From Phoronis australis (lineage: Eukaryota; Animalia; Phoronida): a stretch of 64,000 nt of DNA. Shown here one piece after another: positions 17,238 through 53,828 of this stretch (the first letter of the stretch is position 1; every line of letters starts with the position of its first letter). Below the pieces are notes generated by a model. It made no database searches and was not told the origin of the DNA. It saw only the letters and a list, made by a program, of their open reading frames with translations. The stretch spans positions 677,558-741,557 of the forward strand of contig NMRA01000165.1 in the NCBI GenBank assembly GCA_002633005.1, read 5' to 3'. The translations under genes were made by a program, and so were the position numbers.

Positions 17238-20200
17238 AGTTTAGTATGGGTATGCAATGGTGTTTGGTGCTTACCATCAGTCAGACTCCAAAAATTCAGA
17301 AGTCTGGAGACTAATACATGTAGTGTCAGCTACTTCATTGAAAAATCATAAGACAATTCATGTGCAGCAAAACGAAAATAAAACACACAAAGTTAACATT
17401 CAGACTGCATATAGGTGAACTTGGGTAATCCTGCAAAGAGATTTTGGAACAAAGTTGGGCAATATTTAAAAACTGTCCTGATTTAACTTATTGTTTATTA
17501 TGTTAGACATAGAGATGCAGCAGCGCAGGTTATACTGTACTTATGTAGCAAAACGATAAGATAGCCAAATATTAAACAAAAACCAAAGTAGTTTAGAGTA
17601 TAGTAATACTATATTGAGGCTGACACAGGCAAATTACACGCCATAAATCAAGTAAATAGAAAAGAACAAATGTGGTCACATTTACAAAATGCGAGCAAAT
17701 TAGGTGTACAATGAGACACCTTTAGTCAGCATAGACGACACGTCACGAAATGGAAATAACATTTTGTCTGACTACTTTTGACATACTGTATTTCAAATGT
17801 CTCTGAGTCTTGTATACATGAAATGTGCTACTGCGGCAATTCCATTGACTCAACAATCTTTTGTCACAGTTCAAATTGACGGTCTTCCTCAGCGATTCTT
17901 TTCATTCCAAAGGCATCAAATTGTGCGAGTTTCCCAGAACGATTGAGTGCTGCTAAACGGGAAAATATTTAATCTGCTGAGGCGAGAGACATTCTTCAGA
18001 ACATCAATATGACCAGGAGCAATACATTCATGGGTAACATATAATGCTTTGCTGGCTTTTTGTTTGTAATATCGTTAGGACCTTTCGGCAAATTCATCGA
18101 CGTCAATTAGAAGCTGGGTCCTAACAGGGTTGACTCTTCCATCAGATGCAGCAGTGAGAAACTGATTCGACTTATGGATCTTTGGCAAAGGCGTGGGCAG
18201 CCAGAATGATGGTTGGTCCCCCTCGTTTCCACTTGAAAAATGTGCCTGTAAATATTACAATTATATGCAACTTAATCCGTAAACACAAGAATTATATTTT
18301 CCATAAATAGCCTTTCCCCAAAGTATTTATTTTCACCATTCAAAATAGCTTGGAAGGATTGCCACTCACATATGCATGCAACCCTCATTGTGTGCAAGCA
18401 GCACTCAAAACAAAAGGTGTCGTCAATTAATCAAAATGTAAGTTCATTACTAAAACCTGAAAAACCATCAATTTTGATATATAGCATTGCCACGGCTTCG
18501 AAATGCCATAAAGTTAAGACAAGATCCAACACTCTTCATGCCACGATCCTGATTGAGAAAATTTTATGTTTTAGTACATGATTTTCAGGCTAAAAGGAAT
18601 ACAATTGCATCTTCAATATTTTTAGCTAAATGCACCTTTCAAAATTTGCCTCAGTGGTCACTAAAACAACCCGGAGCAACTATAAAAATCCTGTTATGAC
18701 CTATTTGGAGTACCTAGTAAGCTTTCATTACAAGCAGTCTTCCCTATCAGAGGAATTTTCAAATGTTGACAGTTGTGGTGAAATAACTGGAACAGAACTA
18801 AACGGATTGTGCACTTATGAACATCTCCTCAAATAAACATACAGTACAGTGTAGTTCAAGGTCTGTTAACGCTATCCATTGACTCACAAGCTCTGGCTCA
18901 AACACGCAAAACATAACTTATGCACCTAAAAATCGCATTGCGTGGAGCCAAATCCACTTTGTCCGAGAGACATGGTTGACAAGACAGTAAATACAGAATA
19001 CATGCAAAGTGTTTTGTCTGCAAATACAAGGACATTGTTACAGTCCATCAGTAATGTTTGCTAGCAGATGAGTTAGTGAGACCGTCACCAGTTTTTGAGT
19101 CAATGCACAGTTTACCAGCCCACCAGCCCTGTTTACATTTGAGGCAATTTGCGCAAACCTTGATGTTACATACTCCTGTAACAATGAACAACTTGTGCAG
19201 TAAAACTTCAGAGATGCAAAATTTACTGAATGCAAGGCATTTTTATTTGTCTATGAGGTTTATAAGCAACCACAATACAACTGAAATAAAAATCTACAAC
19301 AACTACTGTTTTGCTATCATTAAATGTTGATGCACTTAATCCTGGAACCAAGAATCTCAGAAAAAGGCTTTGTGTAACAACACTCCAATTCATTAAGTAA
19401 CTACTTACTAGTACTCTTTCTGTAGTAAGCTCAATACAAGTGGCTAACTTCTTTGGCAAACGCTTACAATTTCTGCATAGACCTGCAATAGAATTTTATG
19501 GAAAGTAGGCATAACAGAACTCCCAATAGAATGCTGTATTTTGAATCCCCAAATGTTTTCCCCAGTCTTGTTCATGAGGTTGAATGCTTCAGGTATTAGG
19601 GACCTTAATGGTGTTAAAACTTTAGCCATGGTAATTAAAATAGACCCCATTGTAATGGGGTTCCACTGCATATTTGGAAAATTATGTATCTTTGGTTATA
19701 CAGATAGAGCAATGTGAGAAATTGGTGTCAGCTAGGAGACAAGGGCTCGATTAAATCTTTTGATAATGGACACCAAGTTTCCACTTTTTACACATGCGTA
19801 TTCCTAAAATGGAATGTATTTCGACAAACCCTGAATATTGAGATAAAGTGAATATTTTACTAATACAAGTCAGTACTGGAAGAATTTACTAAAATTACTC
19901 TAGTACTCGAGTGTGTCGCTTTACGTACTTCATATAGGGTTGTGCCCTTCATGTCGACTGCAGTCAGAATCTAGTTGAGAAGGCAAATATAATAAAGTCG
20001 TTATCAACAGGTATAGACTATTGATGACCTGCAGCTGCATAACAACTTACCTGTGTAGTGATTCTTCAAAGGTGTCTTACCTTACATCTTAGTTGTCCGT
20101 GGTCGAGCTCAATAGTTCTGCTTTGGTGTGNTCTCGATTGTCGTCGTCACCCTCATCGTCGTCTTTTCGATTAGTTCCGCCAAGTGTCGCTCCTCCGAGC

Positions 20201-20705
20201 GCTCTCGTTTGTTTAGTCTTGACGTCCTCAGCTAATGGAACGTCGCTGACAGATGAGGCGGACACGGTTGGTGGGACATCATCAACAACGTCCATCACTT
20301 GACCACTAACAGGGTCAAGCATTCCGCCAACTTCCGAGGTTTGTTTATGCAACACATGTGTAATCGCCGGTGCGGTATCAATACACTTTCCACCTGGTTC
20401 AAGCGGAAATCGCAGCAATTCCACCAACTCAGCTATGGTGCTGCCCAACGCATCAAACGGGTCCACCCCAGCGGAGACATCCACAGTGACGTCCGATGGT
20501 GGATGGTTGGTGTCCCCCCCTGTCGCGCACTCTACGGGTGCTGTACCGCCCGCGCTATTTTCAGCGAACAGATGGCGTAAGCTTTCCAGCGTGTTGTCCT
20601 CGTCCGGGGTTGAAGTCAAGGGCTGGTATACGCCACAACCGGACGAGGGTGGGGGAACGCTGCTGACTTGCGATTTATGTGGGCTTGGAATGCCATGGAC
20701 CGGGG

Positions 20706-21635
20706 TTAAGCCCGAGACTCCGGTCCACTGTCGTTTTCCGAATGTTCGTCAAACTTCACAGTCCGAGACCCTACATTATTGAGCAGGGGGCAATCCCTTT
20801 TAATATGGTCCTTGCGCCCGCACGAAAAACATGCGCCACTCGAGGGCGACCTCGAGGCAGAACGCGGAGAACGTGATTCGTTGTAGGTTCTACCTTTGTC
20901 ACCCTGATCTCGGCCAGGCCTACTCCTGTCGCGGTCGCTAACAGCTAGGCGCGACAGGACCTTCTCAATGGCCTCACTGAGTGACCTCGAGGCAGAGCGC
21001 GGAGAACGTGATTCGTTGTAGGTTCTACCTTTGTCACCCCGATCTCGGCCAGGCCTACTCCTGTCGCGGTCGCTAACAGCTAGGCGCGACAGGACCTTCT
21101 CAATGGCTTCACTGAGACAGTCCTGGCTTTCGGCTAGAGAGCGACAAGACTCTTCCACCGCCAACATGCGCTGATCCATATCCCGCTCTGGGGGACCGTG
21201 GCGGCGTGCGGCCTGCGTGGGTGTGTCTCGTGCTTGGTTCACGGAGACGGGGGGCTCGCTAAATGGAGCAGCAGACCGACCATAAATCACACTGTGTGTA
21301 TGCACAAACCACTTCAGGGCGTCCACAGCGGCCTCATATGACGCAGGCCGAATACTCGCTGCGTACATGCCCGCAGCTTTGTTGTGGCACCCGTGACACA
21401 GCTTCGTAATTGCTTGTGTCTGAGCGTGGTGAGGGGAGACGTCATAAAACGCTTGGTTAGCCAGGGACAGGCAGCGGTCAGCCCAGTCATCTAAGGACTC
21501 GGAACTGCCTTGGACTGCGCTTGAAAACTGCAGTTGCGCGGTTTCGGGTAGTTGGTTTCCCGCGAACCTGCGTTCCATCTTAACCGCTATCGTAGTCAGC
21601 GAAACGTAAGGGGCATTGTCTGTCATAACGCTTAA
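20706..21635 (-). CDS. gag: Retrotransposon Gag, 5'-truncated (capsid-like region plus CCHC zinc knuckle)
   Basis: KMERRF..QLPETAQLQF...Q..ESLDDWADR..LA..AF capsid-like motif and CFSCGRKDHIKRDC (CX2CX4HX4C). Lies between the LTRs. Confidence 0.85.
   Translation of the reverse strand, partial: LSVMTDNAPYVSLTTIAVKMERRFAGNQLPETAQLQFSSAVQGSSESLDDWADRCLSLANQAFYDVSPHHAQTQAITKLCHGCHNKAAGMYAASIRPASYEAAVDALKWFVHTHSVIYGRSAAPFSEPPVSVNQARDTPTQAARRHGPPERDMDQRMLAVEESCRSLAESQDCLSEAIEKVLSRLAVSDRDRSRPGRDRGDKGRTYNESRSPRSASRSLSEAIEKVLSRLAVSDRDRSRPGRDQGDKGRTYNESRSPRSASRSPSSGACFSCGRKDHIKRDCPLLNNVGSRTVKFDEHSENDSGPESRA
20848..21117. repeat. 135-bp in-frame tandem duplication inside gag
   Basis: The 45-aa unit LSEAIEKVLSRLAVSDRDRSRPGRD(R/Q)GDKGRTYNESRSPRSASRS occurs twice with offset 135. 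Confidence 0.9.
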
Positions 21636-22021
21636 TCGTCGTGAGAGACCGTCCCGAGTTGGTATGTGGTGCAACTCGGGACGGTCTGGGGTCTACAGAA
21701 AACCATAGTTCAACTGAGAGTCTACACCAATGTGATAAACGAGAGTAGTTCTACTTGCTGCGTCAGCTGCTGGTATGCTTATCTCTTTTATGGCACACAA
21801 TGTGCGACTGGGCAAAGCGTTTTCAAAATAATGTGGATAAATCAGTGGAGTGTGAAACCCCTGAGGTCCCTGTCAAGTCCTCACGACAATTTTACGTTAT
21901 GTATAAGCGAAAAGTATTCGCTAGCTTTGCCCTCGAGGCAAAAACACAGCTGATCAACGCACTCTGCGCCCGTCATATCATTTGCTGCTACGTAGCGCTG
22001 AAATTTTTTAAAAAACGCCAC

Positions 22022-24982: not shown

Positions 24983-27900
24983 TTAATTCCTTTTTCCTGC
25001 AAAACAAAACGTGCAAAAATAAAGAAAAGCCATTTTTAGAACACTTTAACACATTAAAACTCAGTGCCAATGATGATATCTTATGTGGCAACACATTTGG
25101 AAAACAGAAATTAAAACTGTATGTAATTTGGGCTAACCCTAAAAAATCCAAAGTATTGTTTACCTTTTAGGCATATACAGAATTAAATAATCAACTTCAA
25201 AATCCAACAATTATAAGCTTGCTTTGATCCAGCACAGATCAAAATCGAAACCGAAAGTCTATTGTAACTAATACCTTAAAACTGATGAACAAGCAGTTTT
25301 AAAAGTGTACTACCCGTGCTTGTATGGATCACAATAGAGGTAATGTCTCTTCAAAAATGATACGAAAGAAACAATTCTCACCTGACTTCTTGCGTTTCCA
25401 GTCCACCTTTTTAAACTCTTCCTTTGGTAAGCTTCCCAAAGATCTGCGGTCTGGAGACTGGGAACGTGTGACACCAGCACCAGACAATCCTTCGCAGTCT
25501 TGTAGCTCTGGTGTTGCAGCTGGGTAAGGTTGTTGGACCTCGTCTTCTGGAGAATGTTTGTCTTTAGACAACCCGTATGCCACTGGACCAGACCAAGTGA
25601 ACCCAATGTAGAAATACACCTTTTTATGCCTCCAGGTATCGTATTGTGCTGGTTCGGCAGATGGTAGCTTCAGTGTTTCGTCTTTCCAATCAAATCGCAG
25701 CTCGATGATTCCTAACTTGTCAGTAACATATCCTTCAAACTGACGCAGATTTCGTCTAACTTCTTGTGTGTTCCAAAATTTTTTTTTCTCACTGTAATTG
25801 AATCCAGTGTCAGCGCACACGAATCGCTGCCACTCTCTTCCTTTTCCAAGGAAAAATACAGTTTTGTCTTTGGCCCCAGAGCACAGGGTTTCTTCTTTTC
25901 TAAGAAATGGGAATTTTTTGTCATATTCCTTCTTCCACTGGGGGATCACTGTGTTAAGAGGCGAAGGAAGATTCGGATAGTTACCGTCATGATTGGGTTT
26001 GTAGCTCGGCCAATTGAACATGACATAGAAAAGGTAGGGTTCCAGATATATTGGCGAACTGGGAAGAGTTCCTCTGTCTTCGTAAAGCTTATTGCTCCAT
26101 GTGACCATCTGAGAGAATGATACGTCTTCTTCCGGAGTCTTCCACATGGTGGAAAGAATAAGATTTGCACCAAGCATAATCATTAAGTCTTTTGAAGATC
26201 TAGCGTCAGATTTCAAATTTGGTTTTATCAAACGACTTACAGTCTGCAGCTCTCTCGAACTCTGACATTTAGTCATGCTTAAAATGGAATTACCGCACAA
26301 TCGAATAGCCCTTCGCCGTCTGTATTCACATTTTTCCATTTCGTCCAGGTCTTTTGGAACTTCATCACTCTTCTCCTCAAAATAGAATTGCAGGGCTTCT
26401 TTGTTCTTCACAATTTCGCGGTGATAATAAGACTTCTGCTTCATCTGACTGGCATCGAGATGTTCTTCCCGCACCTGGCCCTCTAGATCCTCTGCGTCGT
26501 GAAGTGTTTGCTGAAGGGTTTGAGCAAAACTTTTCAGTGCGGTCAATAGATTGCATCCATTGACGTTTTTCCAAGGTGAAAGTACACCTGGATAAAACTT
26601 AGGATCAACCAAAAACTTGTGAAGACTTTTTTTGCCATTTAGACCTTCAACACCTTTTAAGAAATCTAGAAGTTTTAGCGTTATTTCGAATTCTCCGATA
26701 AATCCCGCCATATTTATCAAACCGTTGTAACTTTCACGCTTGCAACATGTTTGTGCGTTTTTAAAAGCTCTCATTGCTTTTAAGGCTGTTTCGATGGCAC
26801 ATGTTACGTCATTTGGGCTTAAGGGTTGTTTCTTTGTTGAGCCCCTTCCCACATCTGTGAGTTCTTTTGCAAACTGTAATTTGTATACTTGTCCTTGTGT
26901 GTCGTGAAAGTAAGAACTGTCTTGTTTTTTCTTCAATCCTTCTTCAGCATACCGTAGTGCTTCTTCGTAATTGTTCTGATAGGAATACAGGTAGCGGGCA
27001 ATCTGTTGTGCAATGAAAGGGTCTTCGTTAAAGATGTGATACCCCTTTTGTAGTATTGCCGCTGCTCTCTGATTACTTTCGTTACACGAGACGTATAATA
27101 TCAGGGGTGAAAATTTTGTTTTCTTTTCCGCCTCACGCTTTATAAGGATGTCACGGACTATTGTGCGCACACATTTCATGTGAGAACTGTGTGCGTAATC
27201 GGAGAAGATCTCTTCACAGTCTAGCAACTCTGTCATGATTTGGCTCACAGCTTGTTCGTTTGAGAGAATGGCCAGGATTTCCTCAGCTAAGATTCTGTTG
27301 CATGTGGTCAAACCATTGTGGTAGCTGATATGCTCGGCAGTAGACCCAATTACCAGTAAGTTCCACTCCTCACTGGTATGCCTTTCCCATTGGGATTGGT
27401 ACAGTCTCCCCCTAGCTTCTCTTTGTCGCCTGGCAGACATGACACCAAAAGAAAATGAGGTGCTAGAGGTTCTTCCGCTTTTCATAAGAAAATCAAAGGC
27501 GGCTGTTGGAACAGCTCTGAACTGTAGGTCGAAGGCATTTAAAATAGAGAGATACTTAAGTGCCCTTTTTTCCTTCTCATTTGTCATTTGAGACAGAAGC
27601 TTGCTAACGATTAGTCGAATAGCTTCGCGATCGAAGTTCGTTTTCATAACATTAAACGAAAACAACATCTCCGGATGAACCCCACGTTTGTCTTGACATT
27701 TCTTTTCCAGTTCTTGATACTTTTGTAAGAACCACCTCAGTTCTGCTTTGCTGAGTTTATGGCGCAAGACCAGGACCTCGTCACTTTCTATGACTGTTTG
27801 GCGACTACATACGAGAACAACGACACTAAACATGTCTTGGTCCACAGATTCCATGTCTATGTCTTCGTTCCTTGATTCCCACTTAGCTCGCTTCGCTTCA

Positions 27901-30675
27901 CATTCCAATTCTAATCTGAACGATCGGATTTTCTCTGGATCTTCGTCGTCAACTAATACAAGAACAGGGCGTCTTTTAGTTTCGTCGTCCTCTCCATAAT
28001 TTCTGAAGTTGAAGACGTGCTTGCTCGTCTGCATTGGAAGGATCCCTTTTACTACAGCACACCTGTATTTTTTCCTGAGGTTCCATAACACGTGTCTGCT
28101 CGTTGTTGTAGCACCCGCTCCAGGTTGATGGTATAAATATATGACACCAACACAATCACCGTCAACATATTTGGTTCTATTGCCATCAAGCGCCCCTTTA
28201 ACGACAGTCTTCAGTTTCTCGTGAATACTTCGTTTGCACACTTGACCTTCGAAAGCAAAGTTTTTCCAGCTAACCTTTCCACCCCTGAAAAAACGTTCCT
28301 CTTCTTTCTTCTTCAGATCCTCAATATTACTTTCTTTCTTCAGGAAGTCCAATTCTTGTTCACATTCGTCAACCCCGACAACTTCTAGAGATGTTAGATC
28401 GTTCTTCTCGCTAAGTTTAATTATTTCTTCTTCACATGTAGAGGGGATGTTACAATCTACAGTGAACCTGGGCTTCACAAGAACTTTGACTTGTTCTGAA
28501 ACAAGACGCCATGGTAATCCAGCTATGCTGTTATTCAGAAGTGAATCGTCGTCCTCGTTCTTGTATGTTCTCTTCACAATTTCTGTGTTCCAAGCATCTA
28601 GCAACTTCTCGTCTTCACACAAAACACACCACTGATTAGGAAAGGCTCTGTCTATCTCTGGAAACATATCCATCATTATAGGAAAGTCTTCAGATAGCAG
28701 TAAAAATACAATGACTCCACGGCCAGTTGGTACTTCATCTTTCAGCATACTAACCACCTTTCGTAATCTGTCCGTATTTCTGTTTCGCCAAGCAAAAAGA
28801 TCCTGAATTTTGTCGACTCCTTTATGGCCATTCATTAGTATCCATGGCATCGTGCTTTGTGCAAGAATTTTGTTGTCGTCTTTAGACCCAATTTCTCCAA
28901 TCTTCCGCATAGTGATCGGTTCATCCTCTTCTTCTAAGATACTGCAAATCCTACTTTCAGAATCAAAATCAAAAACTGCTCTCCACTCTATTTCTCTCAC
29001 GAAGGAGAACCTTTTAAGAATCGCATTTTCTTCTAGGTTGCGAGGTACTGAACTTGAAATGAGTATGGGAAACAATCCGTCATTGATGACATCATTTCCA
29101 AGAGTCAGGGCATAGGCAAGTTTCTCTATTTTTTCCATGAAAAACGACAAAGTCTTTAAATCGCTAGTTTCTTCGGTATGAAGTCTGACTTGTCGAAGAA
29201 CTGTTCTGAACTTCAGGAACGTTTTCTTTTTATCATCTTCAATCTTTGCAACTTTTTTGTCTATCAGTGCAAACAGTGATAAGTCTGTAGGTTGGGGTAA
29301 TGTGACAAAAATCTCTTCAACACATGAATTTGGTTTAACCACAATTTCTACAACTTTTAAGTCGTCGTTTCCACCCTTAACGTCAATCGAGTGCGGCTCT
29401 GAGATGAGAGCACTGACTACGTCACGTTGATCGTCAACAAAATATTTAAGAATCCGTTGTATTAAGGTATCTTTCAAACTGCCAGAATTTGGAATTCCTT
29501 CGACTGCACCGCTACCATCTTCGTTGGCTCGTATTCCAAAATGGATGACCGCATCTTGGTATGAATTTATGCAACCAGCAATTGTACTAACTGCTTCTTG
29601 AATACAATATGCATCAAATGTTGTAGTTGGCTTTCTACAAGCAATGTATTTGTGTATTGGGTGTAGAAGACTTCCTTCTTCAGACGGCGGTAACTCTTGG
29701 TTAGACCTATACACAAAGCCTGTGCAAATTTCATACGTCTCATGGCCACCCCTTGGTAGCGTACAGGTGTCCAGTTTATCGGCCTCATTCAAAGGCTTCG
29801 GTTGCTTTGGATCGTGTGTGGGCACAATGCAGGTAGGCTGGGGATCAGCCCAGTTGGATCTTATAATAAGACTCACTCCAAGAGGTAAGTTGGGAAAGTG
29901 TTTTGACATCGTGGAATCGTAAGTTGTGAAATCAGTGGACATCAATTGTTCCATTGCCTTTCCGCTGAACCTTAGGTTTTCGAACTCTCGTGCCTCCATC
30001 TCACTGAGCTCACATTTGTTTATTAGCCACTCTTTTATTTGTAGTGGAGTCATAGAGATCATTTTTTCTTTTCTTGACTGTTCCATGATGTGCTCTTTTC
30101 CTAAATTAATGAGAAAAAAATCGAGTTTTACGGGAATTCAGAGGTCTAAAGTGCTTTTGGTAAAATTCATCAAGCCTTTACGTTGTTGGGAGAAAGCAAA
30201 ATTCTAAAATGTGTAATCTCTAAAATAACTGCTTCTTTATATGTGAACGTTTCTTTTCGGTTTACACCATGTAGTAATAAATTGTTCTCAACGTTTCAAA
30301 ACTCGTGCTTATTTCTTCGTCAGGAGTGATGACTAGTTGGAGTAACAGTGCCTTATATGCTTCTTTATATGATTTGTTACCTTTTTCAGGAGTAACATCT
30401 TTCAATGGAGTGTCGTCGAGTTTTTTGGCTAAATGTGGCGTTTTTTCTAACAGTGCTGTGTATAACTTTTGATAACCGTCGTCTCCTTTTTGGCGGATAA
30501 TCTTCAAGAGATGTTCGTTTTTTTCAACCGTCGTTTTTTTACATTCGATCCACTCTTTCTGCTGATCTGACAAAACGTTTTCTTGGTACAACAAGTTCGT
30601 CACTTCCCACGTGTCAATGTCTTTAACAAGGTCTTGGTGATTCCTCTGCAGTCTCCATCGGTTCTGTTCATTCAT
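24983..30675 (-). CDS. SAMD9L: CARD-containing SAMD9/SAMD9L-like protein (CARD-SAM-AlbA_2-SIR2-like-STAND NTPase-TPR-OB), ~1675 aa
   Basis: Exons 30675-30381 (CARD), 30100-25382 and a probable short last exon 24996-24983. Alternatives are 24804-24791 or unspliced read-through to the stop at 25329. Family motifs: SAM (IKEWL...FSGKAM), IAGCINS..AVIHFGI, EIEWRAVFDFD, FFRGGKVSWKNF, Walker A YLYHQPGAGATT..RHVLWNLRKKYRCAV, Walker B PVLVLVDD, TPR DPFIAQQIARYLY and DTQGQVYK, C-terminal FFLGKG and KVYFYIGFTWSGPVAY. The symbol denotes the family, not 1:1 orthology. Confidence 0.9.
25247..25258 (+). promoter_or_regulatory. ISRE/IRF-E consensus (GAAACCGAAAGT) in the putative last intron of the SAMD9-like gene
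   Basis: Exact GAAANNGAAAGT match. Function is unproven. Confidence 0.3.
30381..30675 (-). CDS. CARD (death-fold) exon of the SAMD9-like gene
   Basis: MNEQNRWRLQRNHQDLVKDID..VTNLLYQENVLS..QKEWI......EKNEHLLKIIRQKGDDGYQKLYTAL...PHLA follows the caspase/Apaf-1-type CARD pattern. The phase-1 donor AAAG|gtaac (30380) and acceptor tttag|GAAAA (30101) keep the frame into the large exon. Confidence 0.85.
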
Positions 30676-31544: not shown

Positions 31545-31893
31545 CCTCCCCGCTGGTTCCCTGCGTGCCGCAAGGTGGTAGCCAGCACGCAGGTATCACT
31601 TAATTTTCCTCGGGGTTTTTTTTACACCGGCTTTTCTGATTGGCTGGTCGAATTCTCAACAGGCAGGGCTTTATGCAAACAAACTGGCTATTAAACATTA
31701 CAGCTGAAACGAAATAGTTGCTGCTACACCACTTGCATGACAAGACTAAAAATCGTTCATAGTCCGTCATTTTTTCCCGTTGTTGTAAAGCTAGCCAATG
31801 ACTGCCGAGGTTACATCAACGAATTTGGTAAAGCGCGTGCTACTGCGTGATACCTGCGTGCTAGCTAGGCACGTAGGGAACCAGCGAGGTGAT
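31545..31893. mobile_element. MITE-like element with inverted ends
   Basis: cgctggttccctgcgtgcc...agcacgcaggtatcac is inverted as gtgatacctgcgtgct...ggcacgtagggaaccagcg. Confidence 0.6.
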
Positions 31894-34289: not shown

Positions 34290-35128
34290 AGGGGGTTCTG
34301 AGCTTGTAATAACATCTGTCTTCTTTGTTAACTGCCAAGCCACTCTTGAACACAGTCAAACTCAGCCGAATTCAGTGGTGTAGGCCTATTCGGAAAGAAG
34401 AGATTGTCGTAACTTCTAAACATTGATCACCATTTGACGAAGATTTCAGAAATGCTATTGGTTTATATTCAAATATGTTATAACTTAAAACTTTTGTTTA
34501 AGAGCACAGCACAATCAGGCCGATGAGATACGATCTTATAGGAGATTAGAGCAATTATCGAACAATTAAAGAGATCGAGCTGGCCCTCCAACCATAGCCA
34601 GAATATGGAGTTAACTTGCAGTCGTGTAAGATATTGGCTACCGGGGTAAACTTTCCAACTTGTTGTTGGGCTATAGAATCGAACAATTAAGTTGGGAGCA
34701 GCAACCGGGACTAACGCCGTAATGAACATTTTGCAAACACTTTATTTGGTAACTGATTTTGTTAATTGGCGTTGGATTACTTCTGGTTGATGTTGACCTG
34801 GACTGGCGCTCAGAATATATATAAGTGTAGATTAAACATATTTTTGTGTGACAACCCCTTACAAAGTCAGTGGCGGTTCTATGATATCACAAGAGGGGGG
34901 GCCAACATTTTGTCCGGCTGTAAGCCATTTGCGCACTGCACCACGATTATAGATGCGTCTAGCACCGAATGGGGGGAGGTCGGTAGGGGGGTTTGCCCCC
35001 CTCCCGCCCAGGAAATTTTCTATTTTTTCCTCTAAAAATCAAGCATTTTCCTAGATTCCTGAAGTATTATCCAAGAAAAAAGGCAAAGAAAACATAGAAC
35101 AAACGTGTCAAACAGGAAAAACCGCCGG

Positions 35129-37025: not shown

Positions 37026-40000
37026 TTTGTGTTGAGGGCATCGGCTTCCCTCGTAAGGGGTACACAGAAACAGCTGGTAAATACCTTGTGTAGTGAAGAT
37101 TTGTGACATTACATTCTGTGCAAACAAGAAAACGTGTGGATAGTTCAATATACCAGAAAAGTGTTTGTTGCTTGTTTCCAACGATGAGAATGATCACTTG
37201 TTTGTTGCATGGTGAATGACCTTGGGCTTGGAAGTGGAAGTTCAAGACAAGTTATGTTGTATTGCCTTGTTAGTACTTGTTAATGTGGGGCGAACCTTGT
37301 CGGATTTGTCATTCGTGAACGTTGTTAGTCCTACATCTCTGGAGTTCAAACTTATCTGTCAATTAATTTTGTCCTTTTTGATGTGCTTAATCTTTTACAT
37401 GTATGCAATTAAAGGCACTGGTCGGATATAGTGACTAGTGTTCCCATTGTTCCCTGATGTAGGGATCCAGGCATTCACTGATTAATTGGCCCATTATTTA
37501 ATGTATGAAACTGGTTCTCTTAATCGGTGACCTTTAAATTTGACCAGTGACATTAATTTTCAGTCTTAGTACCAGAGCAAATTACCTGAGCAGTTTTCCG
37601 TACATTTTCACTCAAACGTGATGTCTTGTTCCTGGAGATAAATCTCAGTTGGCGAGTTACCGTGGTTGAAGTTGATTACTGACTTACCACGCTTTGCACC
37701 AGCCAGTGGTGATGAAATGTAGCCCCAGTTTTTTGGAAACTGGTATTTTGCCTGTTATTTAGTGAAGGAAACGAGGACTTACGGCAAAACTTTCCACTGG
37801 TTTCATGTCTCTGCCGCAAAGTTACAATGTTTTTGTGAAACAGGTCCCCAAGTTGTCAAAATGTGGCACATTGGGCCATTTATACTAAATTGAGTGTTAG
37901 TTGTTAGTGAACCTTAGGTTGAAGTGGTGTACGTAATAATAAGAGGAAAGGAGTTAAAGTCAATAGTACCCATTTACACTTAGAACTTTGGACAGAATAT
38001 TACCCCTGGCTTATGTAATCACCATAAAGTCAAATACCACTCAATCTTGGTAGTGGATAAAATATCGATTATACATTGAGTACTGGGTCATTGAAGTCCG
38101 TTTCGCAAATAGTTTTAGTCTAGCAGTTAGCTCCTAATACGAGTGAGCTTATGCAGGCAAATGACTGTTTCTTGCTATTTCCCTGACAAAACATTCTTGT
38201 TGGTTGTTAATACAATGATAAGTGTTTTCCCAATGATCATTTTAATCAAATTCAGTGATTTTTGTGTCATTTGGTTTTTCCAGATTCCAATGTTCAGACG
38301 TAGTTCCTTGGGTGGAGTGCTTATAAAAGTTACAGATCAGCTAGTACGAAGAGGTTTATATTTAATTTAAAGTAACGCTTGTTATTAAAATATTTATGAA
38401 TGTCTGGTTGTGAAGGTTATAAGTCTGATCTTCATTTTGCAGGTTTCTTCCTTAGTTCGGCCACTTGCGGCTTCCAGACAGTTTCATTTTAAAATCCAAG
38501 GAAGGAACACAGACGCAAAGCACAGTTCGGGGCAGGTGAGCTTTTGGAGATGGTTTATTATTATTTTTTGAAGCTTGTTATGATCACGTTAGAGTATCAG
38601 TTATTGAATTGCCCTCGTTGGAGATTTGTTACTGTCCACAGCAGAAATTTTCTGCATCACTTCAGGTGGTCATGAAAATGTTATGCTAAAAACTGAAGAT
38701 GTATATAATGTTGACACATGGAGAAGAAGTGTAAAAAACTGCTGAAAGTTGACCAATTGTCACATGTACACAATCTTTCCTGCACTTTCTGTTCGTCAGT
38801 ACAATTTCTGTATTGATTGTTGTTTTTCTTTTCTTATCATGAGTGTGTTCACACATTACAGACTATCTCACGCGACTACCCAGTGATCGACCATGTTTAC
38901 GATGCTGTGGTCGTAGGAGCCGGTGGTGCTGGCCTGCGCGCCGCCTTTGGACTGGCTAATCAGGGCTTCAAGACAGCATGTGTCACAAAGCTTTTCCCCA
39001 CACGCTCACACACGGTAGCCGCTCAGGTAACTTATCCACTGGATTTTAAACGCCACTTGTCTTGTTTTGATATTGGGTCAGTTACGGGACTGTTTCTGAT
39101 ACACTGCTGACATGGTGAGCGGGAAAGGGTGCATTCATGAATCTATTCAGACCCTGATTTTTCCTTTTCAAAAACAGAAATATGTTTCGCAAGTTTTTTT
39201 TTGTACTTTAGCAAATTCCACTTTACTGATCTGGGAACTGTTGCTTGAGTATATCACAGCTCCATGAATTGCTATTGTATTCTGTAATTGCAGCAGGAGA
39301 AGAGTTTCTGTATCCTTAATACAGGATCTTGTCAGTAAACACGAATTATGTAAAAATCAATGATTTTTGTTCTGTCATAGTTTATGATGTCTGTGGGTAT
39401 CTATACCTTGAGCCAAAAAATTCTCTTTTCCTGTTTAATTGCATCGTTTTAGTTTGCACCTTCTCTATACCTACCCACATAGCTCTGCGCCTGCGGTATC
39501 TGCAATTTTTCCACATGTACTTCTATCTGGGCAAGCTTAGAGATGTTTTTCTGCTGATTAAATTTTCAACCTTTTAGCTGTTCAATCAAAGTTGTTCATT
39601 CACACACTAGGCTCATAATGCACAGATGCATATGTTAAGCTCATTGTGAACTCGTGTAGTTTCTGATAGATGACGGTCATAAGAAGCAGCTTTTGTTAAG
39701 TACACTGCTGGAAAATAGGTCTGCACAAAATCTGATGTATTTGGATGTACAATGCAATCTGAATGCGGAGGTTGTTTTTCGAAAGTAATCTCTAAAATAA
39801 GCGTCTCGGGAATTTTGCAATTAAGTCAAATCAAAGATAATAACTACTTACACAAGCGCAGTCTGAAAAATATTGAAACGGCTTTACTCGAATCCGACTG
39901 AAATGTTCACTTACATTTGGCCTGTTCGCAAAACTGTAGAAAGTCTACAAGTTAAGCTGTGACTTGATGAGTTAGGAATCAATCTTTTTCATAGGGAGGT

Positions 40001-43000
40001 ATCAATGCGGCCCTTGGCAATATGGAGGAGGATGACTGGCGGTGGCATTTTTATGATACGGTCAAGGGATCTGATTGGCTAGGTGACCAGAATGCAATTC
40101 ATTACATGACGGAGGAGGCTCCCAAAGCTGTCATCGAGGTAAGTCACCTTGTAATTCCTTGACAGTTCGCCTCGTGGAATTGTCTTATTGTATTTGTTGA
40201 TTTTTTTATTTTGTCCAAAAAGCAATTCGTAAGATTGATAAAATTCACAAAAGGAAGCATGCGCTTTTGGCCAGTTTGTGGGCAATGACCGACTTTCTGT
40301 GACTTTGAAATTAATTTTTCAAGTACTATAGTTAGGATTGACAATGGTAGAATGTTGATCTATTCGAATAAGTAGTCCATGTTTGATGGCAAAATATTAC
40401 AATAAATAGTCAAACATCAGACCAGTGGTTAAAATATCTTATCTGAGTGAAATCATTATTTGCTCTACTTGAAAAGTAAATGCTGATGAACAGGTAGACT
40501 AAGACTAGCAAAAAAGTGATCTAGGCAACAGGACATTTTCAAAGGCACAAGTGCTCAAAATATTGCTTTAGTGGTTCAGCAGCAGGCTATGACCAAGCTC
40601 CTACTCAGACTGTGCTGCCCTTAATCTGTTTCCACTGCCTTGGACTGTTCCCGGTTTCGAGCCCTTACTGATCTTCATTGGGCAAACAAGTTTGGTCCTG
40701 TCATAGAGCAGCCATAAGAATAGACAAATCAAGTTGGCTTCATTCATTGGGCATGTCTTATCATCTGAATGATGATGAATAGATACCGTACCTCAATTTG
40801 GGTTCATCCATTCAGCATATCTTAAATTAATGAGTGTGGTGAATGCATTCATAGTAGATCCTGCCTTCACTGCTAGAATGTACATTTCCATCATCAAAAC
40901 CTATGGGACTGCTTGAATTGTATGTTTCGTCACTGTTTCAGTTGGAGAACTATGGCATGCCCTTCAGTCGGCTGGAGAACGGCAAGATCTACCAGCGGGC
41001 GTTCGGTGGCCAAAGCCTGGACTATGGGCGTGGTGGACAGGCACACAGGTGTTGCGCAGTGGCCGACAGGACTGGACACTCTATGCTGCACACGCTCTAT
41101 GGCAGGGTAAGGGAGTCTATCTACCTGGAGTCATCCAGCTGCTGTGTATTTATTGTATGAAACCTCACCTGAATTCCCTTTTTTAAGAATGAGAATGAAA
41201 ATATATGGTCCTGTTCTCATGATCGTAATGAGGGCAGAAATTATGTTTATGGTAGAGCTTGAACCCAACAATGCCGTTAGATTTCAAGTTCTGTTATTTG
41301 TTGTTTGTCTCACTGTTTGAGTGTCCACCAGTCACTGCACATAACTGCCCTCACTATGTTGACTGGCACTGCTTCAACTCTAGCTTAAAATAAATAGGTG
41401 GCGCTAGTGTAACCATGGTTCATGTAATTCAATAGGGTACGTATCCCCACAGATGCCTACATGCAAATTGACATCTTTGTTGACGTTCTATTTAGATAAT
41501 AAAAAGGAATCCGTCAGCAACACCTTGTGAATATCTAGTTCCTCATTCACTCGCTTAGTCTTCATAGATTCTATGATTTAGATGTAATTGTACACTTTCA
41601 GTCGCTCTACTATGACACAGACTACTTCATAGAGTACTTTGCCCTGGACCTTCTGATGGAGGAGGGCGAGTGTCGTGGCGTGTTGGCTCTCTGCATCGAA
41701 GATGGCACATTGCATCGGTTTAAGTCCAAGAACACTGTGCTGGCCACTGGGTGAGTTAGCACCAATAGTTTTCAGATTTGGGAACCAGTTTTGCTGGTAG
41801 GGAATATATTGTTCTCGTATAGATTGACACCCATTTTCGACTAAGTGTTGACTCCAGAATTTTAAGAAATTGTACTTCTAAAAGACTGCATTAGTTTTAA
41901 CTCTCAAAAGCTTTATTATTTTTCTGCTTTTAAATTTAACCCCCTGGGGATTTACCAAGAAGGGTGCAATGCTTTAGTCATTTTTGCAGTTGGGCTTCAA
42001 AGAATGTTCAGTAATGTCATTATTTTCAGTGAAACTTGACAACAATATCTCGTGACTTATGTCGCCCATGCTATTGTATGCCACAAGTATGACAAGTAAA
42101 GTCTATCTGGAATACATTTCAGAGCTTTTCTAATACAGCAAGTTAGCGTTCCTAATTTTATACGATTTCACTGTTGAGTTCACTGATAACATATGTAGCT
42201 AGATTCAACATGTCAACTTCATTTTTTCTAGTTTGTTGTTAGCGATTTTCACTTGAACTACATGTGTGTTTGTGTGTGTTGAGTTTGTTCATAGTTGGGT
42301 CTTTAGGTTTGTTCTTCCTAACATAAACTGTTGACCATTTCCAGTGGCTATGGCCGTACCTACTTCTCGTGCACTTCAGCCCACACATGTACTGGTGATG
42401 GTACAGCTATGGTGTCCAGGGCAGGCCTGCCCAATGAAGACATGGAATTTGTACAGTTCCACCCGACAGGTCTGTGTCTTATAGTGATTGCTCTATGTCA
42501 CAGAGAATCCTGCTGGTTGTGCTGTCTCGAAAAACTGATCTTCCTAAAAATTTTCTTATTTGTGATGAAAAGTAAAGGTTTTTGAGGTGTTCATAGTTTG
42601 TATCAATATTTTTTCTTCAAATATTGTGTACTTCGGGTTATGTCAGACATTTTACCAGATTTCCCCCTCATGGTTGACGGTATGCATTGAATGTCCTTCC
42701 TTTTTTAATCTTGCAGGTATCTATGGTGCCGGTTGCCTTATCACGGAGGGATCTCGCGGTGAGGGCGGCTACTTGATCAACAGTGAGGGAGAACGGTTCA
42801 TGGAGCGCTATGCACCCACGGCTAAGGACCTGGCTTCAAGGGATGTCGTCTCCCGTTCCATGACTATTGAGATTCGTGAGGGAAGGTAGGTGTATGTATA
42901 TTGTGGTCACTATCTGATATAGCTGTTGCAGAATCATTGTATGAAATGCAACATCTAGTCAAAAATGAAAAAGTAAGGACTGTAGTTGGAGCCAGAGACC

Positions 43001-46000
43001 TTTTGCTTTTCGTGTCATTTTTAGAAATACAAGCCCTTCGGGGCATCTGCTTCCTGTCACGAATAATGGTAGGGGATAACATGCAGTTCTACTTTTGAAT
43101 TCCTGGTGCCTCTTGTCAATACCCACTAGCGAGTTTGGATCCAGCTCCTGCCACAGAAACTAGGTCTTTCAGTATCCATTACTTCACTAGCAAAGTGAAG
43201 TTAAGTGTGTGTTCTTGTATGATTATCTTCTCATTAAAAGTGTCGCTGAATAAGTTCATTGGGCTGACTCGATATAACAAGAGTGAGGCTCTTTGTGTAC
43301 TAATAAGAAGATTCAACAACAACGCTATATCTGATTGCTTGAGACTGTGCCTAGGTTGTCAGCACCAACCTGACAATAGAATAAGAAATGTCAAGGAAGC
43401 TATTTGGATAATATAAATGAAGGAGGCTATGAATCGCAGTGAAGGGTGGATGATATTTCTGGAGTCTGAAACAGCCTGACAAGCTCCACCTAACTTCCGT
43501 GTTTGAGAATGGCAACTACTGACTGACCAAAACGATTTCAGTTGTTTATAAATAACTCAACTTTCATAATAAAGCCTGTCACTTGCCTATTGCAGAGGTG
43601 TGGGTGAGGAGAAGGACCACATGTACCTACAACTGTCTCACTTGCCAGCTCAACAACTGAAGGAGAAGTTACCTGGCATCTCTGAAACAGCTATGATCTT
43701 CGCTGGCGTCGACGTGACCCGCGAACCTATCCCCGTGTTACCCACAGTGCATTACAACATGGGCGGTGTGCCTACCAACTACAAGGGTCAGGTATGCACT
43801 TGGGGGGCACAGTTGCAGTCAGTCCGAATTTGAGAGGGGCGAAATTGCAGTCAGTATGCACTTGGGAGGGGTACAGTTGCAGTCGGACAGGAACGTTTGT
43901 GTTAGATAAGGTTCTTACGATTTAGGACAGTAACTGCTGCCATCCAAAGTATTAATAATGATTGCATTTATAAAAACTATTATCATAAGAACCGACGGTG
44001 ACGTTGATGAGCTCCTTGCCACCAAGCTGGCTCAGGCTTTGACAGCTATGTTTGCCAAGAAGAAGTTATGAACTTTGGTTAAATCATTACCTGTTGCTAG
44101 CCTTATTGTATCTCTACTGATAATAAACTTCATCCTTGATACAAAGTTTACATCTATACACATTTGCAGGTTATCACTCACAAAAACGGCGAGGACCAGA
44201 TTGTGCCTGGTCTGTATGCCGCTGGCGAGGTGGCGTGCGCCTCAGTGCATGGTGCTAACCGTCTCGGTGCCAACTCCTTGCTGGACCTGGTCGTCTTCGG
44301 CCGAGCTTGCGCCAATACCATTGCCGAGGAGCATAAGCCTGGAGAGGCCATTGGGGATCTGAAGCAGGTGGGTCGTGGGTTCACATTGGGTGACGATTAT
44401 CGTGGTGGGCACAGGGTTCATTTTTGATTTACACTCCACGCTATAATTGTCTCTTTAAAATGCCTGGTAGCACAAAGTAATGTTCAAAGGTTGCAAAAGC
44501 ATTCCTAAGCTGATCTACATATGTCAGACTGTAATTGTAGTTCGTTTATGCACCCTGCTGGTGTCTTGTTCACCTCCACCATGGCCAGTCTCTACCAGAC
44601 CTAGACAGTTTCTTTCCCCTGTCATGCCATGTAATTTGTAAAGAGAAGGCCTCTTGCGACTGTTAATGTCCCGACTGAAGTAAAATGCCTGGAATCGTGC
44701 TGTTGACGTACGGTTGTCTCATAAGTCAGTGTGAATGCACCTCAACTTGAACTTTGCTGGTTTTGTATGCAGAATGCTGGTGAGGAATCTGTCGCTAACC
44801 TGGACATGCTGCGCTTCTCTGACGGCTCAACGCCTACCGCCGATTTGAGATTGAAAATGCAAAAGGTGAGGAAGATCTACCACTTGGGATTTCACTTGCC
44901 AATAAATAAACAATACATTTAAAAGCCCACAACGTGATGGAGAGGGCACAGAAACTGGTCGAATAAGAATTGCTGAAACTTCAAGTTTACTACTTAGTGT
45001 CTACTTACAGGAAGGTTAAACGTTAGGTTGGTGGCTTGTGCCTCGCTACAGAAGAGTACATCGGCCACTAAGTGCTCATACTTAAGGAAGTGTTTTATTG
45101 CATTACTGCGGACAAACTGAAAGTAATATAACCTGGCAACATTTGACGTGAAGTGTAAGCATGAATTGAAAATCTCAGGCTGTGTCCTGGCTACCTCTTA
45201 TGGTATATTTAACTTTTACTCTGTCTAGCTGTTGTCTAAGTGGAGTGTATGCGTTTTTGTTTCTCGTGCTGTAGACGATGCAGAATTACGCTGCTGTGTT
45301 CCGCGACGGGCCAACGTTGAAGGAGGGCGTGAAACAGATGAGGGAGCTGTACGGTCAACTAGAAGACATCAAGGTGACTGCCTGTCCTTGCATTTTGCTT
45401 GTGTCAGCCTAGTTTGACTACGACAATGTTAGTTTTAGCCATATCACCAGTTTAAGATGTGTAATCAGGAATGCTAAGTCATCATATACATTTAGGATCC
45501 AACTCTAAAATGTTAACCAAAACAGTTCTTATCAAAGATAGTGCTGCATGGAGCTTTAAACAGTAGATATGGACGATTTTGAAATATTTATGTCTCGATG
45601 TTAAGGCAGTGTGGAAATGAATGTATGCCTGATTGTTATTGTATATGTTTCATAATACCTTAGGTTTATGTCAAGAATAGATTTTATCTACTCAGTTGGA
45701 TTATTGAATAAGTAGCCACAGTTTTTTGTTTCTAAGCAACGACTAATGAGTCATGATTGAGCGCAAAACAGTTACTTTTTGGCAAGCCACAATTCACTCA
45801 CTAGCAGTTAGTAATGTATTTCTGTAGGTTTGCATTCAAAGTTGCATTCGTTTATTTTGTGTTAATGTGGTTGTATGATCTCCAAACATTAAATTTAAGT
45901 GACGTGATGAACATTTTGCTTTACCCCTTTCAAATAGGCTTCAAAAGGAATATCCCTAAAACAGAGTGATTTTCATGATTTGCAAGGTAAAAGAAGCTAT

Positions 46001-47459
46001 TCGCTATCTGTGTATTCCCCATTATGCATCTGGAGTGTCTCTGTCTGTGTCTGTTACCACTATGTTCAGCATGTAAGACAGAATGTGAAAACAAACTATT
46101 GTGTCGATGTGACGATGCATTTACATAAAATGTTATTAAGTTCATGTTGTGAACTTTGAATTTCGAACAGGTCAGTGACAAGGGCATGGTGTGGAACTCA
46201 GACCTGGTGGAGACACTGGAGTTACAGAATCTAATGCTGAATGCCTGCCAGACAGCCGAGTCAGCGGAGACTAGAAAGGAGAGCCGCGGAGCTCATGCCC
46301 GCGAGGACTTCCCGGTGAGTTAGCAGTCTCTGTTGTTGTTACATTATAACTTCTTTGGGAAGAAAGTTTCTTTCGAAGTTCACAAGTGCCATGAGATTGC
46401 ATTTGTTTGCATACATATTTAACAAGTCCTGGTGAATACCAGGCAAGTACTATTTCAAGCCAATCTGAGTTCATTAGTCCATATTTGTATTCCGGCTGCA
46501 AGCCAGTGTTACCAGCATACCTCTGTTTAATCTCATAGGACCGACTAGACGAGTATGACTACAGCAAACCATTAGAAGGTCAACAGAAGAAACCCTTTGA
46601 CCAACACTGGAGAAAGCATACACTGAGTTATCAAGACCACAGAACGGGCAAGGTAACATGCTTTACTTTGGCCCCGGCCCTGTAACGTGAATTATTGATG
46701 TTCCATAACAGCCCATCATTCCAATAGAAAAACGTAGAGTGGCAATTAACCAGCCTTATTTTAAAAAGACTAGCTTTTGAACCCGGGGGAGTCACTCATA
46801 TTGACAAGATGCCGGCAAGCGTGTGCAAAAAAATTGCTGAGAGACTCCCTATTGCCTGTACCAGGTCTGCTAATTCCCACCCCCTTTTGTAGGGTAGATT
46901 TTGAAAAGTTTTCTGAGCTTAGTATGTGAAAGGTGTTGATTTGTGCGTGGAGTCTAGCTTTTAGTTTTTGAAAAAAGCACTTGACCGTTATTTGTTGAGT
47001 GGAAATTTGACATGTCACTGAAGCGTAGCACTGTAAAATTTCATATTTTGTATTCAAGGTAGCCATGGCAAAAAGTGCTGTATGTACTCTGAACATTGAG
47101 CCTTTTTTACTAAATAATACTCCTGAAGTTAGCTGTACACAACCTCAATAAAAACCAACAGTTGAAACACATACTACAAAACACAAGTTTCGCTGGTTGT
47201 CGTCAAAGCTGTGTTAACTTGAAAGCTAAAGGTATTTTTTATATAAAATCACGCAGTAGATTGAAACTGTCATTTCAGCATGACCTATTTTTTAAAATTT
47301 ACTGTTTCACTAATGCATTTTCATCAATATTTGCCCAGTTATGTTTGGTGTAAGACCTTTTCTCTATTACAGGTTACCATCGACTACAGACCTGTCATCG
47401 ATGACGTACTTGACCCTAAAGTAGTTGACAGTGTACCGCCTAAACTGCGATCGTACTAA
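37020..47459 (+). CDS. SDHA: Succinate dehydrogenase [ubiquinone] flavoprotein subunit, mitochondrial (15 exons, 665 aa)
   Basis: Exons 37020-37076, 38443-38535, 38862-39026, 39995-40138, 40942-41106, 41602-41750, 42345-42469, 42717-42885, 43596-43791, 44170-44367, 44773-44865, 45275-45373, 46171-46314, 46539-46652, 47373-47459. All introns are GT-AG and the exons sum to 1998 nt in frame. Motifs: [18 protein letters not shown] (FAD His), [44 protein letters not shown]. The Arg/Ser-rich N-terminus fits a mitochondrial transit peptide. Confidence 0.98.
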
Positions 47460-48128
47460 ACCAGTAGACGCATACTCATAAGAGACTTGGCTGACAAACT
47501 CTAGTCTGTGCCAGTTCGTGAAGTGAGGTTATTTGGAACAAAAAGTACTGTGCTTGGACACTGAGAGGGTTAAAGGATGTAAGGTCTGCGTTCAAGTCAC
47601 GAAGTGTGTGCTCCATAGACGTTTGGCAAATTCCTCTTGTAGTACAATTTGTCAGGTGTCTGCATAGTTCATTGCCTCCTAATGGCTAGCAGTTAAACAC
47701 ACAAGTTTAGCATTTAAGCACTATCCACCATGTGTTTCATTGGTTAATTTTAATTCAGTCCCCTCTCCCCCACTGTGGCTACGCTAGTGGTAATAAAATA
47801 ATGATTCCAAGGTGCAATTTGCCATCCTCTCAATGTGAGCACTTTAAAAAACTGTTTTTGAATGCTGGAAGACAATATCCTGTTGGTCTGTAGATGAACA
47901 CGTCAAAGTTATCAGTTCCTGGCTGAAAACTATGTACGATGTTGCCCTGTATTGAAAAATACTAAATGTCTTAGTGAATCCTTGTTTTGCAGCAGGTATA
48001 ACATTTTGTTGTTTTTTCTGACTTCAGACTGTCGGTGTTTCAAAATTTGGTGATGCCAATTTCCAATTGAACTGTGTCTGGATTGTAGTTGAATAATCTT
48101 TTTCTATTATTGATATTTATTTTATTGT

Positions 48129-52071: not shown

Positions 52072-53828
52072 ATGATTGCCTTGGCAAGAATATTCAGATG
52101 TCGTCGATATGTGGTAAGTTTAGCAGGGGGATATCTCAGTATAACTGTTTTGCACTCTTCTCATAGCCTTCTTAATTGTCGCGTGAGATGTAGACCTCGT
52201 TTCCTATATGCCTACAAGCAATCATGACAACTGAGCAGTGTCCGTTCCGTCGCAACGGCCAGGTTTATGTAATTACGAAATGCTATAACTTTCCAGGGGT
52301 TTCGCATAAGGAGAGCCGTTCGTCTACCAACTGGTACCTTGACAATTGCTGCTTGCCTGGTTCTTAGTTATTACTTGTGGCCATACTTCGTGGATAGTGC
52401 CAGTAAATCACTTCGTATTCTCAAGAATTTATCAGTGCACGGTATGTTTTCTAGTCTACATGTTGTCAATACTTCCGGGACGGCCAAGCTATATACATCA
52501 GTCAACCTACGAATCTACCTAGCTGCCTACCTATGTACTACACACGCTCCTAATTAAGTATTCTTTAAACATAACGATGCTTTGTAACAACACTCCATCC
52601 TCGAAAGTTTGGAGTCGCTTAGTCGAGCCGAATCACGGAATAAATGTCTTTGAATTTTGTCGCATAGTAAACGAAACATCGCAGAAGTTGAAAACATGCC
52701 ATTAGGATCTGGTTTCAATTACCACCTGTAGGATTGTACTGTACGCGCATCCGTTTCCGGAAAAGTGAATTCTTGGCGTGTACTCTATTTCCTTATAGAT
52801 TTGCGTGAAACCCGACAGCCAAGGTGCAGAGCGGCAGAACTTTCCGGGCTTGTCGAAGAATTTCGATCTCAAAGCAACCGGTTTATCGTTGACTTTTTCT
52901 CGTTACAGAGCTTCTTAACTTCCCGCCTCTGGTACAGTTCGAAGAGACTGAAAAGAGGATTAGCGCGCAACGACAGAGACATCGAAAACTCTCCGTGGAA
53001 CATTTCTGCCAGAAACACAAAGAAAATGTAATCCTGGACATTACCACGATCCCGCAGCGAAATCTTGCTAACTTGTTGTTCAATGACAAATACAGTGCTA
53101 TCTACTGCTTTGTACCGAAGGTGGTATCTACAAACTGGAAGCGAATATTTTTGTTACTGCAAGGAATGCCGCTAAAATCAGTGTTGGTCATGGATCGAGA
53201 AAACGTTCACATGAGCTCGATACCGACGTTGGGGGACTATCATGATAACAAGACCGCCATGATTCACAGGCTTCGAAGTTATACGAAGTTCCTCTTCGTT
53301 CGAGATCCATGGGAGAGGTTATTGTCGGCCTACCGCGACAAATTTGCTAATGACAGCTATGAGTCCCCTCAGTCCAAAAGATGGCTGAGCTATGTCCTGA
53401 TTTCTCGAAAATATTCAAGGCCCGCTTATAGTCAGACATTCGAGTCTTTCATAAAATTCCTCGTAGGCGAACCAGACGCTGTAAGCCGTTTGTCGCCACT
53501 GTTTCCCGAAAACGAACACTGGGCTCTCTATAATGACCTGTGCCACCCGTGCGCTGTTCATTACGATGTCATTGGAAAATATGAAACGCTGGAAGAGGAC
53601 ATAGGCCTTGTCTTTAGGACGATCAACATAACGCATTTAGGTTTCAAGTTCCCAAAAAGGACAACACGGGAACAACTGTCGAGAAGTACCTCTTCGATAA
53701 TGAAGGCTCAGTATTCCACAATAAGTGAAAGCTTAATCCAGCGTGTTAAAAAACTGTATTCTCAAGACTTCGAGTTGTTCTCGTATTCATCACGTAATCC
53801 CGCAAACCGTGGAAAGGAAAGGAAATGA
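52072..53828 (+). CDS. Carbohydrate sulfotransferase, CHST11/chondroitin 4-O-sulfotransferase-like (Sulfotransfer_2 family), ~368 aa
   Basis: Model: exons 52072-52113, 52297-52441, 52909-53828 (1107 nt in frame; the first exon is least certain). Type II membrane anchor TLTIAACLVLSYYLW. 5'-PSB YCFVPKVVSTNWKR and 3'-PB KFLFVRDPWERLLSAYRDKF. Also NEHW, LCHPC..YDVIGKYETLEED, and LYSQDFELFSY. Confidence 0.9.

Follow-up and report, generated by a model that had tools for sequence, protein, structure and literature searches.

The window analysed here is a stretch of 64,000 nucleotides of the phoronid Phoronis australis (contig NMRA01000165.1, positions 677,558 to 741,557), whose minus strand carries a gene of the SAMD9 family. 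SAMD9 and SAMD9L are human antiviral and disease genes, and their known effector is the AlbA_2 tRNase. The main open reading frame (ORF) of the window gene (25329-30137, minus strand, as are all features of this gene given below) has 1602 codons and runs without interruption over 4.8 kb; residues of the window protein are numbered on this 1602-amino-acid stop-to-stop ORF. A phmmer search against the PDB aligned residues 141-1174 to human SAMD9 structures in one alignment (E = 1e-68), and identity to members of the family is about 28-30%. The main exon (25329..30100, drawn from sequence and from RNA contigs of run X1, described below) encodes SAM-like, AlbA_2, Sir2-like, NOD, TPR and OB domains in this order. 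A CARD sits upstream in a separate reading frame, a layout also seen in homologues. The predicted first coding exon (30381..30675) begins with an ATG at 30675 and ends at a donor at 30380, and the Pfam CARD match (E = 1.7e-15) occupies about 30415-30651 within it. A predicted 280-bp GT–AG intron (30101..30380; GT at 30380, AG at 30101; phase 1 on both sides) would join the CARD exon in frame to the main exon, giving a predicted protein of 1688 amino acids.

We compared the AlbA_2 domain (29118..29765) with that of human SAMD9, in which E184, E196, E218 and D241 are each essential to tRNA cleavage, any single alanine substitution abolishing it (PMC10246899). K198E, K214E or R221E abolishes nucleic-acid binding by the human protein (PMC8795524), and E184/E196/D241 is the Schlafen-like triad (PMC11221667). 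In the window protein, catalytic E196 is replaced by lysine (K163, codon 29651-29649) and D241 by alanine (A204, 29528-29526), while binding residues K198, K214 and R221 have become isoleucine (I165), tyrosine (Y177) and serine (S184, 29588-29586). K163-Y164-I165 occupies 29643..29651; Y177 and S184 lie on helix 1 (29586..29609), together with E181 (29597-29595), the retained equivalent of E218. The loop equivalent to human E184 (P151-S152-E153, 29679..29687) is one residue shorter than in human SAMD9 and ambiguous in register, which puts P151, S152 or, with MAFFT, E153 at that position. At best two of the four catalytic acids remain, at least two having been lost together with every one of the three residues essential for binding, so that neither the acidic site E184/E196/E218/D241 nor the basic set K198/K214/R221 of an active SAMD9/Schlafen-type tRNase is complete.

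The fold, on the other hand, is predicted to be intact. The AlphaFold2 model of the domain has a predicted local distance difference test score (pLDDT) of 87.8, and Foldseek matched it to SAMD9 tRNase structures 7ksp and 9o0d with template modelling (TM) scores of 0.73-0.75; a Pfam scan of the window protein gave no AlbA_2 or SAM match. The confident model and these matches, taken with the lost residues, point to a stripped site on a preserved scaffold, and the domain is therefore very likely a pseudo-nuclease with a retained predicted fold. An alignment artefact was rejected, because around E196 and D241 the neighbouring motifs are aligned gap-free and the fold agrees; so was pseudogene decay, since the 4.8-kb frame is unbroken, the NOD motifs are intact and RNA contigs are present.

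The core order AlbA_2, Sir2-like, P-loop NOD, TPR and OB is that of SAMD9-family (STAND) proteins, and both modelled regions match SAMD9 structures. Ahead of it, a candidate for a divergent SAM-like domain (ORF residues 28-92, 29862..30056) was found with a local SAM hidden Markov model (HMM; E = 1e-6; hhalign probability 77%). The SAMD9-type Walker A region (H670-T678, 28104..28130) is non-canonical, with an upstream histidine and no lysine; H670, G675 and T677 are present, as are Walker B D730/D731 (27945..27950) and the sensor-1 arginine R779 (human R837; 27801..27803). The residues used for this comparison are those named in the SAMD9 cryo-electron microscopy (cryo-EM) paper (PMC13600222). 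The model of the TPR2 and OB-fold region (25470..26600; pLDDT 85.2) matched human TPR2-OB, 9zjr, by Foldseek (E = 7e-11, TM 0.66), with weaker matches to cold-shock OB folds.

An earlier note on this DNA, made from the letters alone, had described a dead AlbA_2 site in an otherwise intact protein, and much of it holds. Its changes HEFK>HKYI and GVKD>GIRA lie where it had put them in the phmmer alignment to human SAMD9, the VFR arginine it found replaced by serine is R221, opposite S184, and the need for these acidic and basic motif residues is documented for the human protein by the two mutational studies cited above. Its unbroken frame, family-type Walker A and B motifs and intact TPR and OB regions are all found, and with the predicted tRNase fold its idea of a pseudo-nuclease scaffold stands. 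For the PETG glutamate, which it gave as lost or shifted, the shortened loop agrees, while the ambiguous register leaves either outcome. Added here are the K198 and K214 replacements, the candidate SAM-like domain before AlbA_2 and the placing of the CARD in its own upstream frame.

To see how widely the dead site is shared, we collected 201 homologues (56 from a first search and 145 new ones among the best 150 of 474 in a second). Of the 202 sequences, window included, 164 gave an AlbA_2 match. The number of catalytic acids kept is bimodal across the family: among the 161 sequences with three site columns filled, four were kept in 63, three in 11, two in 28, one in 43 and none in 16. A tree of the core (Sir2 and NOD; 196 rows after six short rows were dropped) splits at one branch, with support 1.0, into a canonical side of 93 rows and a dead side of 103, the latter including the window. 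E196, D241 and K198 are all kept in 67 of 69 scorable rows on the canonical side and in 0 of 90 on the dead side, window included. Three kinds of replacement mark the dead side, and the window has each of them: V, I, L or M at K198 (53/89 against 0/69 on the canonical side), K or R at E196 (31/89 against 0/69) and an aromatic residue at K214 (34/89 against 5/69). As judged from 30 records that were looked up, named dead-side members are gastropods (Nucella, Littorina, Physella, Plakobranchus), bivalves (Potamilus, Sinanodonta, Solemya, Mya, Mercenaria) and an annelid (Ridgeia), and those on the canonical side include oysters, amphioxus, a hemichordate and vertebrates. Two positions of the NOD also vary: human G743 is alanine in the window and in 31/93 canonical-side rows, and the second Walker B acid (human D800), aspartate in the window, is asparagine in 87/103 dead-side and 23/93 canonical-side rows.

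The CARD follows the same division. It was found in 29 of 103 dead-side rows and in none of the 93 on the canonical side; among rows with long N-termini the counts were 28/28 and 0/16. Pfam alone gave 19 CARDs in the 165 proteins scanned (36 vertebrate records of the first search were left out), all of them on the dead side, and the further ones were called with a local HMM seeded from these 19. No protein among the 93 canonical-side rows combines a CARD with an intact site, and the two are mutually exclusive in the sampled family. The earlier note had proposed a check of whether CARD presence tracks catalytic loss across paralogues; across the homologues sampled here the two go together.

The family contains other fusions as well. 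In eight dead-side proteins (P0106, P0139, P0155, P0160, P0161, P0169, P0189, P0197) a DZIP3-like HEPN domain precedes the CARD; all eight of this sub-branch have the R-x4-6-H motif, and its three named members are bivalves. Judging from this motif, from which RNase activity is inferred, the HEPN domain is possibly a replacement RNase effector. P0117, a CARD-bearing dead-site member, has a C-terminal AIG1 GTPase and is, with P0180, P0101 and P0151, among the other fusions, of which the canonical-side ones carry kinase, PYRIN or ubiquitin-like domains.

We rooted the family with distant ORFs from genomic loci, presumed to be bacterial. The window and the dead set fell on one side of a branch with support 99, or 98 under a mixture model, and with 99/99 when the search was run in full, the window branching first in the dead set, on a long branch. 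A midpoint-rooted FastTree had placed the window beside the canonical set; its rooting was distrusted and replaced by the outgroup trees and approximately unbiased (AU) tests. Because the window shares the hydrophobic residue at K198, the basic residue at E196 and the aromatic residue at K214 with the group, a single origin is favoured, the most likely course being one loss of catalysis on the stem of the dead branch. Its presence in bacterial Avs9 (PMC12680541) and in Schlafens (PMC11221667) makes an intact site the probable ancestral state. The earlier note had taken the loss for an event of this gene that followed the gain of the CARD. The dead state, however, is common to about 90 homologues, from gastropods, bivalves and an annelid, and a recent loss specific to this gene was rejected on that ground. 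The gain of the CARD and the loss of catalysis sit on one stem branch, and no intermediate with both a CARD and an intact site was found, so the tree supports neither order over the other.

Constraint on the dead domain was gauged by pairwise protein identity in AlbA_2 relative to the core. At 40-50% core identity, AlbA_2 identity was 35% on the dead side and 44% on the canonical side; at 50-70%, it was 42% and 61%. By this proxy, constraint on dead-side AlbA_2 is relaxed and still present. The columns that remain conserved are almost all shared structural ones, and no new conserved polar constellation appeared in the dead-group alignment.

We also examined 51 related animal-type genomic loci, found with a search pattern derived from the dead-side alignment; all 45 that were placed on the tree fell on the dead side. 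A same-strand CARD frame lies upstream in 10 of the 51, three with a dead AlbA_2 and seven without an AlbA_2 match, some of these seven being near-duplicates. Pfam confirmed all six of the locus CARDs that were re-checked; at seven other loci, the 40 ORFs scanned upstream gave no death-fold domain. AlbA_2 had no match at L004, L005, L013, L021, L025, L047 and L050, nor at L015, L019, L036, L038, L039 and L048; in the AlbA_2-less layouts, either the exon downstream of a CARD frame begins with the Sir2-like domain, or SAM connects straight to Sir2. At the more distant SAMD9-like loci L054, L060, L064 and L065, several of which look split or frameshifted, AlbA_2 keeps the equivalents of E196, D241 and K198.

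Transcription of the window gene was assessed in four sequencing runs, X1-X4, none of them registered as RNA. Run X1 nevertheless has the behaviour of RNA: its contigs pass over 11 GT–AG introns of the neighbouring gene for SDHA (succinate dehydrogenase flavoprotein), and spliced reads or contigs of that gene are present in runs X1, X2 and X4. Three X1 contigs lie within the main exon (26212-26497, 26653-26825 and 27050-27250), each with 0-1 differences, which indicates that the 3' half of the gene is transcribed, weakly.

The SDHA gene itself is a multi-exon gene on the plus strand (38817-48000), with 11 read-confirmed introns between 40138 and 47373. Between it and the CARD exon, dispersed repeats at 31550-31890 and 34300-34500 have heavy coverage by diverged reads on both strands. 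A carbohydrate sulfotransferase-like ORF (52893-53828, plus strand; Pfam Sulfotransfer_2, E = 4e-50) is covered by reads in run X2, and the same bins of X1 and X4 are uncovered. The best protein matches of this ORF (38% identity) and of one SDHA exon (88%) were scattered across many phyla. On the other side of the SAMD9-like gene, a Gag-like ORF (20089-21692, minus strand) with a CCHC zinc knuckle and an internal tandem duplication, in a GC-rich patch, is probably the remnant of a long terminal repeat (LTR) retrotransposon.

The explanation we favour, and consider reasonably likely, is that an old invertebrate branch of the SAMD9-family STAND proteins includes this gene, and that in this branch AlbA_2 has lost its cutting and binding residues and become a dispensable folded spacer, while a CARD added by the predicted splice signals instead. 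The human SAMD9 protein, a STAND protein, is closed with ATP bound; it opens, and assembles by means of Sir2/Sir2 and OB/Sir2 contacts (PMC13600222), and AlbA is not required for its binding of double-stranded DNA (PMC12015307). Taking human SAMD9 (PMC13600222) together with the logic of Apaf-1 and NLRs, we infer the following steps for a protein with AlbA_2 as spacer and clustering CARDs. The ATP-bound closed protein would open on a trigger and assemble through Sir2/OB/NOD contacts; the clustered CARDs could then recruit a putative CARD-bearing caspase or adaptor, and the output would be cell death or an inflammatory signal rather than a shut-off of translation. By this analogy, the CARD would be the signal output of the branch.

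Several observations weigh against this explanation. No read or contig in runs X1-X4 spans the CARD junction, and read depth over the main exon is below 1 in runs X2-X4. Acids occupy both the E196 and the D241 column in five dead-side rows, and 74 of the 103 dead-side records have no CARD. The earlier note would have counted CARD-less homologues with the same substitutions against its reading, but many such records are gene calls on single exons, and two, P0057 and P0113, are calls made on the second exon of a CARD gene: P0057 groups with a complete Ridgeia model bearing a CARD, and at the locus of P0113 (L040) a CARD frame lies 1.7 kb upstream. L006, which is frameshifted, has no CARD in 3.6 kb upstream, however, and L041 none in 2.3 kb, stretches longer than the CARD-to-SAM gaps of 1.4-1.9 kb at other loci; at most of the remaining loci the upstream DNA is too short to judge. 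Rows lacking AlbA_2 also occur on the canonical side (23/93, fragments among them), so deletion of the domain is not confined to CARD proteins. With the gain of the CARD and the loss of catalysis on one branch, their correlation amounts to about one evolutionary event. Finally, the alternative root, with the window beside the canonical set, was not rejected by AU tests (p = 0.42, 0.62 and 0.17), and in the test with p = 0.62 the constrained tree outscored the quick free tree.

A bolder extension, which we hold to be doubtful, is that animals have two ancient SAMD9 classes, one self-contained and tRNA-cutting, the other an unrecognised, much-expanded CARD class that would form a caspase-recruiting 'SAMD9-osome', with its dead nuclease serving as a decoy for viral SAMD9 inhibitors and with one bivalve sub-branch re-armed with a HEPN RNase.

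It is also conceivable, if improbable, that the dead AlbA_2 is an integrated bait for viral inhibitors of canonical SAMD9, or for another ligand, and that binding of the bait triggers CARD signalling. The poxvirus inhibitor M62 binds the N-terminal 385 amino acids of human SAMD9 (PMC13245274), and an AlbA_2 that keeps its fold while surface and catalytic positions vary would suit such a role; both classes are present in bivalves, here in different species. The seven CARD loci without any AlbA_2 speak against this, and relaxed constraint accounts for the same data.

Separate retirement, in which the CARD came first and the window lineage lost catalysis apart from the mollusc and annelid group, ranks behind the bait, and we think it improbable too. 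It would fit the position of the window as the earliest-branching dead-site row, on its long branch, the root beside the canonical set that the AU tests left standing, and a Walker B that keeps DD where 87/103 rows on its side have DN. Against it, the window shares the group-specific replacements at E196, K198 and K214, the best trees give one group (98-99), and no protein with a CARD and an intact site was found among the 93 canonical rows.

That AlbA_2 is still an active nuclease or nucleic-acid binder, through a site rebuilt from E153/E154, E181 and E206/D207 or on another substrate, is very unlikely: the fold model is confident, E218 is kept, E153 may replace E184 and acids lie near both motifs, but a single alanine at E196 or D241 abolishes cleavage by human SAMD9 (PMC10246899), the binding residues are gone, the dead group has no new conserved polar constellation, and an acid 2-4 residues past D241 is found in 46/67 canonical proteins that still keep D241, so that E206/D207 are unlikely substitutes.

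The combination of CARD and AlbA_2 has been known since 2017, when Mekhedov et al. (PMC5445408) described CARD-bearing invertebrate SAMD9 members, including the Lingula CARD-AlbA_2 protein XP_013415988.1. As predicted for the window gene, these have the architecture CARD, AlbA_2, Sir2, NTPase, TPR and OB. That work preceded the discovery of the nuclease; AlbA_2 figures in it as a DNA-binding domain, and the role it predicted is apoptosome-like. The parts of it available to us make no mention of lost catalysis or of CARD and intact site excluding each other, and its supplement 2 alignment may show the substitutions uncommented. A word search of the main text of Legrand et al. 2025 (PMC12680541) found no 'CARD', 'invertebrate' or 'mollus', nor did the available text of a 2025 review (PMC13245274) contain 'CARD'; no report of a nuclease-dead SAMD9 branch was found in a literature from which most subscription papers were outside coverage. 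The dead site as a mark of the whole subfamily appears to be the new part.

If the branch does signal through its CARD, the SAMD9 chassis would be a modular animal immune receptor, as Avs proteins are in bacteria, and the 2017 prediction of an apoptosome-like SAMD9 particle would become directly testable. Many mollusc and annelid genes annotated as 'SAMD9-like' should then not be presumed to encode translation shut-off factors. They would also offer natural nuclease-dead, non-self-repressing proteins with which to study the fully activated state, which cryo-EM work on the human protein has not captured.

In Apaf-1 and the CARD-NLRs, a CARD at the N-terminus precedes a STAND NOD, and repeats follow at the C-terminus. 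The predicted window protein resembles them in this arrangement, and differs from them in having TPR in place of WD40 or LRR repeats and a SAMD9-type NOD with Sir2-like and OB domains. Human SAMD9 and SAMD9L (7ksp, 9zjr; PMC10246899, PMC13600222) share with it the domain order (its SAM domain being a candidate), a non-canonical Walker A, the DD of Walker B, the sensor-1 arginine and the predicted folds; compared with them, the window gene adds an upstream CARD exon by a predicted splice and loses E196, D241, K198, K214 and R221. Bacterial Avs5, Avs6 and Avs9 (PMC12680541) have the same STAND core, on which N-terminal effectors (AlbA_2, PNP, Sir2) are exchangeable. In Avs9 the AlbA_2 site is intact and required for killing (PMC12680541), whereas the window protein has a dead copy of the domain, predicted to lie behind an animal death-fold domain.

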